Part shown: positions 16,266-52,200 of the stretch, piece after piece | Layout of the letters: every line of letters starts with the position of its first letter | How positions within the stretch are numbered: the first letter of the stretch is position 1 | Assembly (NCBI GenBank): GCA_051294375.1 | Contig: CM119270.1 | Location: 6,408,391 to 6,472,390 of the forward strand | DNA: 64,000 bases | Direction of reading: 5' to 3' | DNA from: Paraspadella gotoi | Lineage: Eukaryota; Animalia; Chaetognatha | The notes under the pieces: generated by a model | What the model saw: the letters and a program-made list of their open reading frames with translations, nothing else | The model's database searches: none | Told to the model about the DNA's origin: nothing | Translations under genes and position numbers: made by a program

Positions 16266-19200
16266 ATGGCGAAAAAAAGAAGTAAGTACTCGGCTCTCGT
16301 TTGTGTCGTCGTCGTCGTCGTCGTCGTCGTCCTCTTCTTCTTTTCTTTGCTGAATTTATTTTATATATATTTTTACTTTCAGAAGCTATTATGGTGGACT
16401 AAAATTCCGCCAACAGTTTCAATCAGCGGCCATTGGGCATGAGCAAGTCAATCGCCTCCCAGTGGTGCCGGTGGTCGCCTTGCAATTAAGAGGGATTGGG
16501 GCACTTTAACCCGCTTGTAACACGGTTTTACACCTGATCCGAAGCTCAGGGACTGCTTAGATTGAACGGTTCTGTCAATAACTACTAACAATTATTACTG
16601 TCTCTTCGCTATTATTGTTTCTTTTGCTCGGTGAATTTTTACTAATATTTTACCCACGATTATGACGATCTTCTTTCCTCGCTCCATAGTTAATTAATAA
16701 TTATCTAATCCTGAAATCGCTATGACTCCGATTATTTTCCACACTCTCTCCATTCAACCCCGACCTCACCTCCCTTCCTTTCGCCATCCGCTGACAACGC
16801 GGGCGAGCTACGAATCCCTCATCTTTTCTCTCGGGATCGTCTTTGGATTGACGATATATTTTGTCGGCTTTGCTGCGCTCACTTCTTGTCGTAAGCGATA
16901 AGATAAGTCGCTTGACTTTTCAGCAGCGTAATATATGAATACCGATTCAATTTTTTCTTTATATTTTTTATGACAGAGTTCAGTTTTTCACCTTTTAATA
17001 AATCACAAAGTGTGGCAGCAAGACTTAAAGCTGCCTCACTGCTGTCCGTCCTCAGCCTCGTCTCAATGGCTGAGCAGCTAAAATCATTTCATTCATCCGT
17101 GCGTCCCGGGTCAATCCCCGGGTATCCTGGTTCTGGCTTAAATGTGCACAGTGCCGGTATAAACATGCCAGTGACAGGAGCGGTCACTGAGGGTCCGCAG
17201 CCCCTATGCCAGTTGGTGAGATACCCCGCGCCCGGGTATCACAGGCTATCCCCCGTTGCCATAAGTGGTGAGCCCAACTATCGAACACGCAACCGCTGCG
17301 TACCGTGCGCCCACGCTTACGTCGCTTAGGGTATGCCATATCACGGCCTATGCCTACTTCTCTGGTAACGCTCCAGACTCGCTCGCTCGCTCGCCTCTCG
17401 CTCTCACTATGGCAATGAGATCCAAAAACCTTCTCTCAGACATCTCCTCAGGGATTGGAGGCCCCCTGTGGAGAAGTCTGGTGGGGGATCCTGTGGCAGC
17501 AAGACTTAAAGCTGCCTCACTGCTGTCCGTCCTCAGCCTCGTCTCAATGGCTGAGCAGGCTAAATCATCTCATTCCATCCGTTGCGTCCCGGGTTCAATC
17601 CCCGGGTATCCCGGTTCTGGCTTAATGTGACGGTGCCGGTTATAAACATGCCAGTGACAGGAGGCGGTCACTGAGGGTCCGCAGCCCCTATGCCAGTTGG
17701 TGAGATACCCCGCGCCCGGGTATCACAGGCTATCCTCCCGTTGCCATAAAGAACCTATGATAACACCTCAGTATTTGATTGGTTGTCGTGGCAACACTTT
17801 TCCCTATCGCCAACCGCTCGACTACCTCAGCGCTATCCCGAGACGTAAGAGCGACCTTGGCGTTAGTGGCAATCGAGTAAGCTGGACGGGACGTCTACCC
17901 ATCTCAAGCTGTGGTACTACTCTCAAATCCACAGTTCTGAAGCTAGAGAATTACTGGCGGTAATCGTTAGTGCTATGTGTCACTAATTGTCTGTATTCGG
18001 CTTCACACCTTTTTTTCTTTAAGCATCTTCCACGCCCCGCTCGCCGTCCCAACCTTTTTTTAAAAAAGATGGCCGCCGCGAAAACCGAATTTCATAAGCT
18101 CGGTCGTTTTTTTTTCGCCTTCGCTTTAATTTCTCCGCCTCGATATCTCACCGGATTTCCTTTTCATGGTCCATCAATTCCAGTGAGAATAAATTGATTT
18201 ATCGATCAATTCAATCAATCACGCGCATCAAGTAAACCAACCAATCCAATCGTTAATAAAAAAGAATCATTTTGTAAATCAGTAATCGTATCAAACGAAT
18301 AATCATTCAAATCAGCAATTTCGCCGGATAATCGATCAATCAGTAAATTATTTTGCTATTGGTCTATCAATGCCTTCAAATATCTATCCGCCCATTCACC
18401 CTTCATCAATTAATTGTACACATCCGCCCATCCTTCCGTCAGCGTGGTGCTGCGTTCGCGCCTTCAGACGCGCTCAACTTTGCCACGCGGCTCGGACCAT
18501 GAAAGAAGTTTTTGAGGAGCGAGAGATGAATACTTCCGTGACTTGGGGGACGCTGCTGGGGGCACTGCGTACCCAAAAAGCCACCGACGGCGTCTACAGT
18601 GAAAGGTGAGTGAGGAAAGGTGAGTGATTGAGAAAAAGTCGGGCCAGGAGTATCATAACATTGAAGAAACAGTAATTATTGATTATTGATACAGCGGGTT
18701 AAGCGCCCCGTCCCTCTTAACTGCCAGGCGACACCGAGCTAGAACCCGGACCTTTGGTTGGGAGCAATGACTTGCCTCCGGCACCAATGACAGCTATGAA
18801 CGTTGGGGATTTTAGTCCACCATAAAACCTCTATTTTTTTTTTTTTTTATATTAGGGGACTGATCCTCTGGACCACAGTATTAAATTTGCTCTCGACGAT
18901 GATAGCGTCCCGTTTGCGATTGATTTGTTGCAGGAACAGGGACTTAAGGTAAATTAAAAACGTGGGAATTAATTGTTTGTAGCGTTTCTATCTCGCTCTC
19001 TCTTTTCTTACTCTCTCTCTCTCCTCTCTCTCTCTCTCTCTTCTCTCTCTCTCTCTCTTTCTCTCTCCTCTCTCTCTCTCTCTCTCTTCTCTCTCTCTTC
19101 TCTCTCTCCCTCCCTCAAGATCGAAAAGCTTTCCAATCAGTCGACGGCATTTCGCATCCTCGTGCCCGTCGAGCCTCGGTTGTGGCACGTGTATTCCTCT

Positions 19201-49298: not shown

Positions 49299-52200
49299 CT
49301 ACGGGAAGGGGCGCTGCTTGACGCCGAAGAGAGAGTGGCGCCGCAATCGCATCGCGCGGCGCTCGAAGTTTCTGAGGGAAATAAAAGCGTAATTTTTACT
49401 CAGATGCGTTATTTTATAAATTTAAAAGTACCGTACATATATTTATAATTTTAAATTATAACTATTCCATTTTGTCTTTAATAAATTTTAATTTCGTAGT
49501 TGAAAAAAAAAAGTAAACCTAACATGATATAGAAATAAAACTACAAACCGGAACCGAGGTCAAACTGAAACGTGGCGTATGGCGGAACCGGTGTTGCCGG
49601 CTGCTGAGGCGGTTGCGGCGGCGGCGGCGGCGTCCGCTGCGGCTGGGTCTGCGGTGACGGCGGTGGAGGAGCGGAAGCCGATCGCGTGCGGTCTCTGGCG
49701 GTGGAAAGAGAAAACAAATGATTTACGGAAAGTCTCAAAGGAAATAAACAAAATAACAATGAAAGTGGAAAAAAAAATAGATGTATTGCTTTTTGCCGGG
49801 ATTTGAGAAGCCGAGAGAGAGGGCCGCAATGCAAATTTAAAAAAAAATGTTAGTTACTACATAAATAAAAATTTTTGTGGTTGATCAAAGGGAATTCGAT
49901 AAAAGAAATTAATTGTTCATTTAATAAAATCGATTTGGGGGGAGGGGCATCAAGCAGGGTAAGTGACGATAACGAAAACTTTGTGGACTTAGTGGTTATT
50001 CATAATAAAAACACAAAAAAAAACAAAAAACAAGCGAATCACTAAACTTTAAACGAAAAAATAAACACAAAACGGATCATTACGACAAAAAAACATGATA
50101 ATGAAGAGACAGTAATTAGTGATATGAGTTAGTGAATAGTGATAGAACCGTTCAATATAAGCAGTCCCTGAGCTTTGGATCAGGCTGTAACACCGCGTAT
50201 AGGCGGTTAAGCGCCCCGTCCCTCTTATCTGCCAGACGACCACCAGGCTAGAATCCCGGACCTTTGGGTTGGGAGGCGAATGTCTTGCCTCCGCGCAATG
50301 GCCACTGATGAACGGTTGGTGGATTTTAGTCCACCATATATCCTCCCCTCCGTAGGGAGAAGTCTGTTGCGTCACTTCAGTGAATTGTTGTTGTTGGTGG
50401 AAAGTACGTCACCAAGTTGAGGCATGTCGCTTGATGTGTTGTGGGTGGAAAGTGCATCGCCAGGTTGAGGCATGTCGCTTGAAAGTGTTGTTGTTGCTGT
50501 TGTGTTCGGAAGTCGGGCTCACCAATGAAGAGACAGTAATTAGTGATATGAGTTAGTGATAGAACCGTTCAATATAAGCAGTCCCTGAGCTTCGGATCAG
50601 GCTGTAACACCGGTTACAGGCGGGTTAAGCGACCCGTCCCTCTTAACTGCCAGACGACCACCGGGGCTAGAATCCCGGACTTTTGGTTGGGAGGCGAATG
50701 TCTTGCCTCCGGCACCAATGGCCGCTGATGAACGGTTGGTGGATTTTAGTCCACCATAATAATTTGATAAATTTATAAAATATTTATTAAAATGTTACTG
50801 GGATTCTTCGTTTCGCGCCAAATATAAAAGAATTTTCCGGTGAGGAGAAAGCGAATCGATGGACGAGTCCGTTCTGGAAGCGGAGATGAAGGAAGTTAAT
50901 AGAAAATGGGAGGAAAGAAGAAGTAAGAAGGAAGGAAATAGGATATTGGAAATAGGAAGGAGACGGGACGGGGGAAAGTAAAAACAAAAACAAAAACGAA
51001 ACTCGAAAGAGAAAAGAAGCAACAGGAGAGTAGAAAGGAAAAAAACAACGGGGGGAAAATGGAAAGAGAAGGAAAAAGAGAAAAGAAAACAAATTAATAT
51101 TCCAATAATAAAAAAGTATAGAGGGTGAAAAATGTTTGAGCGACTGAAAATGATGCGTAACTCATAAAATATATAGGGTATAAATATATAAGGGTAATGG
51201 GAATAGTTTTATTTTCAAAAATATTCTAGTTTTTGTTTTACTTTGTTTAGATATTTTTCTTGTTTATCTTTAAATTAAAAAAAAAGATGTACAGCCGTAT
51301 TTTAGTTTTTGAATCCGTTTTATGTTTTTTAGTTGTCACATGCTATTCAAACCAGCAATGATTAAGGACCACAAAATGTTATTAAAAATGGGCCTGACCG
51401 CAAAATGGCTTTTCTACCCTTTTTTGGTTCTTTTTTTCATTATCAACATTTTTAGAATAAGAAAAACGGATCATGAAACAGAAAGAAGAAACAGAGAAGT
51501 AGAAAGTAGAAATGGAAAAGAAGAATAAGGAAATGAAAACAGAAAAAATAAGAATTTATTCAGAGATGAGGAAGAAAAATTTTTTTAAGAGAAAAGTTAT
51601 TTGGAAGAATAAAGATTTGCTTAAATCTTGTCAAAAATCTAAAATCTTAATATTTTTTTAAATTTTTGACATGGCGTAATATATAACATATATAACCTAT
51701 ATATAACCTATATATAACTGAAGAGTTTGAGGTTGATAACTTCCATCAGCCAGCGACATATAATCTATAATCATCTATTCTTAATGTAGCTTAACCTTTT
51801 GATTAACCTGTAACCTTTCCACGAAACCGGCATATCTTATAGGTAGGTAATCAGTTCTGAACTTTTTAATAATAGAAATTGACATATCCAGGATCAAGAT
51901 TGGCAAACAGCGCCAAGGGTGAAAGAGAGGAGAAAGAGAGAGAGAGAGAGAGAGAGAGAGAGAGAGAGAGAGAGAGAGAGAGAGAGAGAGAGAGAGAGAG
52001 AGAGAGAGAGAGAGAGAGAGAGAGAGAGATATTTCAGCATCAGTTCAACTGCGCGGTTTTCTGAAAAAGGAAATCACTGTCGAATGTCGACCACGGCATT
52101 ACTTTACTTTACTTTACTTTACTTTACTTTACATTACTTTCTCTCCTCTCTAATTTCGAAAAATTTGCTTCAATATAGAATACGAATTTACAAAAAAAAT

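Follow-up and report, generated by a model that had tools for sequence, protein, structure and literature searches.

The 64,000-nucleotide stretch of the chaetognath Paraspadella gotoi analysed here (contig CM119270.1 of assembly GCA_051294375.1, forward-strand positions 6,408,391 to 6,472,390; hereafter the window) contains two short elements with long terminal repeats (LTRs), Element 1 (E1; 17011..17748, + strand, 738 nt) and Element 2 (E2; 50102..50758, - strand, 657 nt). From their sequences, we propose that both are non-coding miniature retrotransposons with terminal repeats (TRIMs), that each of their LTRs combines tRNA-like promoter boxes with a predicted self-cleaving fold resembling type-P5 twister ribozymes, and that they would propagate through a unit-length, likely circular RNA with the help of a CsRn1-like Gypsy element primed by tRNA-Trp. 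We give this reading as a whole a probability of about 0.55.

A preliminary description of this DNA had recognized two complete non-coding LTR elements at these positions and had assigned them to several TRIM families with a primer binding site (PBS) of the tRNA-Trp type, and we agree with it on these points. It was also right that the LTRs of E1 and E2 do not align (the local alignment score of 16 was reached by 231/300 and 207/300 shuffles). Its conclusion that the LTRs are unrelated or were swapped, keeping only priming and packaging signals, is not supported by our analysis. The LTRs of E1 and E2 share a predicted architecture, consisting of a 5' hairpin, A and B boxes, a twister fold and a U5 region, in which pairing is preserved through sequence change.

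With permissive settings, Rfam aligns its twister-P1 model weakly to the core of each E1 LTR (19.3 and 16.6 bits). The twister parts absent from this match sit upstream of it, and the motif thus has the order of a type-P5 permutation. In E1 the order is P5, P2', GA, T1', a short linker, UAA, P2, GC, P3, P4 with its loop L4, and P5; E2 has the identical order in different letters. In the 3' LTR of E1 (fold at 17617..17696, +) the helices P2 (4/4), P3 (6/6), P4 (4/4) and P5 (5/5) and the pseudoknot T1 (3/3) are paired, and the predicted cut is at 17643/17644. The 5' LTR of E2 (50578..50651, -; predicted cut 50627/50626) has P2 2/3, P3 6/6, P4 4/4, P5 5/5 and T1 3/3. The catalytic G-A, the U-A-A site, P2, P4 and both pseudoknots, T1 and T2, are all present in these two copies. 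The partner copies fit less well. The catalytic strand is the place at which the fold in the E1 5' LTR (17133..17212, +; predicted cut 17160/17161) misfits the descriptor; this noisy copy departs there from the 3' LTR, and the majority of public contigs agrees with the 3' LTR. The fold in the E2 3' LTR (50161-50233, -; predicted cut 50209/50208) has T1 2/3 and P3 3/6.

Several comparisons argue that this fold is not accidental. A loose P5 descriptor, which does not require pairing in P3 or P5, has only two matches in the window, the E1 3' LTR and the E2 5' LTR, and matched shuffled versions of the elements in 1/5000 and 0/5000 cases; a stricter descriptor matched none of 100 whole-window shuffles. 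P3 and P5, which the loose descriptor did not request, are nonetheless paired 6/6 and 5/5 in the best copies. The same descriptor recovers two natural P5-order twisters, L038 (L038:148-213, with a P2 of 3 bp; confirmed by Rfam at 52 bits) and L040, and beyond these controls and the present LTRs has no match in 454 kb of fetched loci. (The pattern search that returned these controls also returned L039, which does not fit the descriptor.) T1 is formed by different letters in different members: CGG/CCG in families 1 and 2 (those of E1 and E2), GGA/UCC in a third family and GGG/CCC in L038 and L040. Four positions of the Osa-1-4 twister tolerate no change, G13, G30, A46 and G48 (PMC5113685), and families 1 and 2 have equivalents of all four. 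In public contigs of family 2, just two of the listed departures from the window copy lie in 50613-50650 plus 50593, one in which the window copy is the outlier and one a minor change in T1; 50543-50560 has 6 listed. We regard the fold as very probably real, and activity, as predicted from sequence, as probable. An alignment of the motifs by MAFFT did not follow the structure, and three viral stretches that matched two twister patterns derived from E1 and E2 lacked the helices and were judged to be chance matches.

Additional LTR copies extend these observations. A probable third family is represented by an LTR at 48543..48800 (-; ends tentative) with a B box at 48719, a decayed P5-like twister and a 6-base palindrome, and by an older fragment at 562-668. 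In its fold, T1 is altered on both sides with pairing kept, and the T2 side is decayed; no target site duplication (TSD) was found around the LTR at 48543-48800. These copies fit the solo-LTR "family 3" of the preliminary description; its "family 4" could not be identified. Family 2 has an older solo LTR at 10591..10810 (+; TSD CTAT, no B box, decayed twister; duplicate at 16390-16608) and an internally deleted LTR at 12127..12291 (-; duplicate at 18662-18824) that has lost the 3' half of the twister. AT-rich DNA at 46130-46400, with a TGTAG start and an ACA end, may be a decayed LTR and may correspond to the earlier family 4.

As for P1, T1' and UAA are joined by a linker that has too few bases to form a hairpin, and no P1 hairpin folds within a monomer. 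In its place is a palindrome with a fully self-complementary 6-base core, whose letters differ among the three families; the self-duplex energies of the three P1 linkers are -8.9, -8.3 and -10.7 kcal/mol. In the E2 5' LTR copy the palindrome is 4/6 self-complementary, and most contigs depart from the window copy at this site. P1 is dispensable for twister activity in vitro (PMC5113685; PMC6154101), and amphibians have hammerheads that cleave as dimers, with a stem of one pair and a loop that is palindromic (PMC7229834). Because the palindrome takes the place of P1, we think it likely that two twister copies pair through it.

Upstream of the twister are sequences resembling the A and B boxes of tRNA genes (the consensus was taken in part from PMC10886601). 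In the E1 5' LTR (17067..17118, +) each box has one mismatch, a combination found in 5/1000 shuffles; in the E1 3' LTR both are exact (A box at 17548, B box at 17592; 0/1000 shuffles). The weaker boxes of the E2 5' LTR (50706-50717 and 50664-50674) have 1 and 2 mismatches (31/1000 shuffles). We looked for a run of four T's on the sense strand and found none in E1 or E2; only 2/312 stretches of 700 nt in the window lack one. This absence is weakly consistent with read-through by RNA polymerase III (Pol III). Among 11 listed runs there was no RNA holder, a negative that has no bearing on expression.

Both elements have the features that define TRIMs: a length below 1 kb, two LTRs, a PBS, a polypurine tract (PPT), no coding capacity, and dispersed copies with short TSDs. 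The longest open reading frames (ORFs) beginning with ATG are 87 aa in E1 and 46 aa in E2. In E1, the LTRs at 17011..17263 and 17492..17748 align with 247 matches, 3 mismatches and 10 gap columns, and the PPT is at 17480..17488. In E2, the 5' LTR (50526..50758) and 3' LTR (50102..50338) align with 223 matches, 11 mismatches and 18 gap columns, and the PPT is at 50341..50351. Judging from loose ends in public contigs, E1 finishes with CCATA (TG...TA) and E2 begins with TATGG (TA...CA). TTAT flanks E2 on both sides. E1 is flanked by AAAG on the left and AAG on the right, and either one A was lost in a noisy read or the duplication is of 3 bp. E1 is missing from the duplicate copy of its region, where the empty site is 11208-11211. 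Across four runs for each element, the public contigs that map to E1 range from 93 to 1383 and those that map to E2 from 837 to 12022, depths that we do not take as copy numbers. Dozens of these contigs break off sharply into unrelated flanks at 17011, 50758 and 50526; before 17011 there are 47, 36 and 47 of them in runs X1, X3 and X4, and one X4 contig spans the left flank of E1 to 17010 and continues in different letters. E1 and E2 are therefore dispersed high-copy families, and their insertion is recent.

The PBS ties these elements to a likely helper. The preliminary description had reported that the internal regions start almost identically, and indeed the window has exactly two occurrences of TGGTGAGCCC, both 1-2 nt past a 5' LTR. 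The complementarity is longer than had been described. Past the 13 nt that face the tRNA-Trp acceptor, CGAACAC (in E1, CGAACACGCAACC) faces the T arm, so that E1 has a bipartite PBS at 17266..17294 (+), with an acceptor part and a T-arm/variable-loop part, and E2 has a bipartite PBS at 50502..50524 (-). With the extension, the duplex formed with a tRNA stand-in falls in energy, in E1 from -17 to about -43 kcal/mol and in E2 from -23 to about -37 kcal/mol; tail shuffles equalled it in 0-3/500 (E1) and 5-15/500 (E2) cases. Compared with the tRNA-Trp complement (PMC10886601 and loci L016 and L009), both sites agree except at position 7, and in E1 also at position 11. The G at position 7 that E1 and E2 have in common suggests a variant of the host tRNA.

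A contiguous tRNA-Trp complement is found at the LTR ends of loci L016, L009, L031 and L019; relative to these, the gap between the two PBS parts in E1 and E2 is shorter, by 3 nt for L016 and L031 and by 2 nt for L019. L031 and L019, in which the PBS is extended in the same way, are autonomous elements that encode a CHCC Gag, L031 with a protease match and L019 with a reverse transcriptase match. A CHCC Gag, a Trp PBS and a 4-bp TSD mark the CsRn1 lineage (PMC3630058). The Gypsy-type partner suggested previously thus gains support, and the helper class is likely CsRn1-like Gypsy. It is plausible that one helper serves both E1 and E2. The PBS pattern found no stretch in viral contigs and 37 in metagenome contigs, none of which has a twister by the descriptor or the exact E1/E2 spacing with LTR context; among 13 examined further, 2 are autonomous and Gypsy-type and none has a TRIM-type LTR pair. 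At L009:1600-1646 and in L023 and L032, a PBS-like stretch is the complement of some 47 nt of tRNA-Trp, as far as the anticodon arm, and exceeds the usual PBS of 18 nt.

We postulate the following cycle. Pol III transcription from the tRNA-like boxes would read through both LTRs, and the two twisters of one transcript would pair by the palindrome, each supplying the P1 of the other. Cuts at 17160 and 17643 would release 483 nt of E1, and cuts at 50627 and 50209 would release 418 nt of E2. Cleavage would leave 5'-OH and cyclic-phosphate ends and no terminal redundancy, which suggests that the released RNA is ligated and copied around the circle. A host ligase could close it, and the CsRn1-like helper, primed with tRNA-Trp, would copy and integrate it. 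Reverse transcription around the circle would restore two LTRs, as in plant retrozymes, in which a circular route has been shown (PMC4918200; PMC7761336). We consider such a route for E1 and E2 slightly more likely than not.

Several of our results weigh against this proposal. Cleavage, transcript and circle are all predicted from sequence, and the descriptors are post hoc, composed after inspection of these LTRs. The Rfam Twister-P5 model (RF02684) lists neither motif at E values up to 10 (the control L038 scores 52 bits), the twister-P1 scores are far under that model's gathering score of 67, and a scan of the window with Rfam at gathering score and with ARAGORN found nothing. The position of twister A28 is a C in family 1, and P2 of family 2 contains a C-A mismatch. 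Among eight window LTR copies tested, only two fit with T1 and T2 intact and three do not fit at all, and minimum-energy folds of the monomers pair the P2-P4 region otherwise. In the window copy of family 2 the A and B boxes are weak, the LTR heads obtained no score from ARAGORN or from the Rfam tRNA model, and the absence of a T run is not significant by itself (1451/2000 and 341/2000 element shuffles lack one). No helper was identified in this organism, in which no genome-wide search for one was made.

The main alternative is that the twister is active and serves only to make the 3' end of a linear Pol III transcript, with only the 3' copy cutting. The part lying between the tRNA-like start and the cut would be terminally redundant, and ordinary strand transfer could then proceed without a circle. 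LTRs in the supplement of the paper on Helenus, a group of TRIMs, mostly end in a T run after the tRNA part (PMC10886601), those of E1 and E2 have none, and a cut might take the terminator's place. The ends of the non-LTR Perere-3 RNA are also processed by twisters (PMC8501958). However, the motif is the same in both LTR copies, and the palindromic P1 points to mutual activation, by which both would be cut and the redundancy lost; moreover, plant LTR retrozymes of like layout make circles (PMC4918200; PMC7761336). We consider the linear transcript unlikely, and the other alternatives less likely still.

It is also conceivable, and in our view improbable, that the fold is derived from a twister, cuts poorly or never, and now acts as a packaging structure, the palindrome being akin to a retroviral dimer-initiation signal. 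The C at A28, the P2 mismatch, the lack of a monomer P1, the absence of a Rfam P5 score and the many decayed copies would all be expected of such a relic. It accounts poorly for the retention of the catalytic G-A, the U-A-A site and both pseudoknots in LTRs that otherwise do not align, or for what appears by eye to be an unrelated ribozyme class at the equivalent place in Helenus-2_SyJa. A reading of E1 and E2 as ordinary TRIMs whose LTRs are unrelated or were swapped, with only priming and packaging signals in common and a coincidental likeness to twisters, would explain why the LTRs fail to align in primary sequence and the PBS is common to both. It is very unlikely, and is largely refuted already by the descriptor matches in both families against 1/5000 and 0/5000 shuffles and by the helices that were not asked for; a third family also has the fold. 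Nor does the proposed packaging motif help it. CAGAC(A/T)TCTCC is indeed present in both elements, as the preliminary description noted, but 20/200 shuffles yield such a shared 11-mer, a level near chance, and we reject it as a common packaging signal. The E1 copy forms an arm of an internal hairpin at 17437..17480 (+; arms 17437-17447 with 17470-17480).

The proposed elements combine features of two known groups. Helenus elements, also called TRIMp3 (Kojima 2024, PMC10886601), are likewise non-coding and below 1 kb, with tRNA-like A and B boxes in the LTR, a PBS and PPT, a 4-bp TSD in animals and an inferred Gypsy partner. The 4-bp TSD is clear for E2 and for the 10591 solo LTR, and E1 has one only if one A was lost. 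Unlike Helenus, E1 and E2 have an extended bipartite PBS and one LTR end in TA; the LTR of L031 also ends in TA, followed by a short spacer. The nearest Helenus elements are the Trp-primed Helenus-2_SyJa and Helenus-2_SyUm from Synergus, in which inspection by eye shows a ribozyme following the tRNA part. Their motif looks like a type III hammerhead with complementary loops, whereas that of E1 and E2 is twister-type, and Rfam listed no hammerhead in the latter. In the Helenus paper, "twister" is not mentioned, "ribozyme" occurs once, in a reference, and the hammerhead-like motif of the Synergus LTRs goes without comment.

Plant LTR retrozymes (Cervera 2016, PMC4918200; review PMC7761336) resemble E1 and E2 in being non-coding LTR elements with a PBS, a PPT, a 4-bp TSD and a Gypsy helper, and in having one motif per LTR and a unit-length RNA between cuts, for which self-cleavage is a prediction in our case. 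They differ in having type III hammerheads, a tRNA-Met PBS and demonstrated circles; E1 and E2 are animal elements with twisters, a tRNA-Trp PBS, promoter boxes and predicted circles. The LTR retrozymes described in PMC7761336 are plant elements with hammerheads, and the animal retrozymes described there are without LTRs, PBS or PPT. E1 and E2 join Helenus features with LTR retrozyme features.

Other likenesses are partial. With RF02684, E1 and E2 share the order P2'-GA-T1'-P1-UAA-P2-GC-P4/L4 and complementarity in both pseudoknots; in that consensus P1 is a long hairpin and P3 is absent, whereas E1 and E2 have a P3, a palindrome of 6-8 nt as P1, and a score under that of the model. They share the tRNA-Trp PBS and 4-bp TSD with the CsRn1 lineage of Ty3/Gypsy (PMC3630058), and, unlike CsRn1-type loci, they encode nothing and have a PBS with G at position 7 and a shortened gap. 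The T-variants of Schistosoma Perere-3 also join a twister, with a weak or variable P1, to a retroelement; that twister is of type P1, in a single copy at the 5' end of an autonomous non-LTR element (PMC8501958). In the literature that we consulted, twisters are tied only to non-LTR elements (PMC8501958; PMC7761336). Our literature search found no twister-bearing LTR element, within a reach that stopped short of Repbase, Dfam, subscription papers and the original twister lists.

Around the elements, the window contains gaps of N and a pair of extensive, noisy duplications (7330-13066 / 13093-19598 and 21804-33877 / 33891-45723), whose pairs are 88-95% identical with many indels, one pair being interrupted by a 25-N gap. 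They are likely assembly artefacts, two versions of a single locus laid in tandem. Exons of a FoxJ2/3 forkhead gene lie at 180-9400, and its 3' portion recurs at 13093-15200; named matches to these exons are 77-88% identical, with molluscs ranked first. A frameshifted LIM-domain gene (Pfam PF00412) at 39023-39692 (-) has a second copy in the duplicate unit. Short Cys-rich ORFs at 42402-42920 and 30531-30968 (-) resemble WAP four-disulfide cores by eye and have no Pfam match. At 52493-55801 (+) are AT-rich intronless ORFs of a composition unlike that of neighbouring genes, one of 206 aa with an XK-related match and one of 604 aa that is hydrophobic and has no Pfam match. A sequence at 47678-47918 resembles a miniature inverted-repeat transposable element, with 107-nt arms that are 94% complementary.

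Few biological roles have so far been assigned to twisters, and an animal LTR element that has twisters, is abundant and was active recently offers a test of whether ribozyme classes are interchangeable in a circular-RNA route. E1 and E2 are also a test case for a twister that works as a dimer, and they illustrate how a high-copy twister variant can pass under Rfam thresholds. We speculate, tentatively, that they belong to a radiation of animal LTR retrozymes with many families, each with a Pol III head and with permuted, P1-less twisters that would be obligate partners through their palindromes, such that cutting and circularization would be confined to complete transcripts with two LTRs and transcripts of solo LTRs would stay uncut. 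If our reading is true, these elements, together with the hammerhead-bearing, Trp-primed Helenus elements of Synergus, would make up a class of Trp-primed animal circular-RNA retroelements in which one ribozyme may take the place of another.

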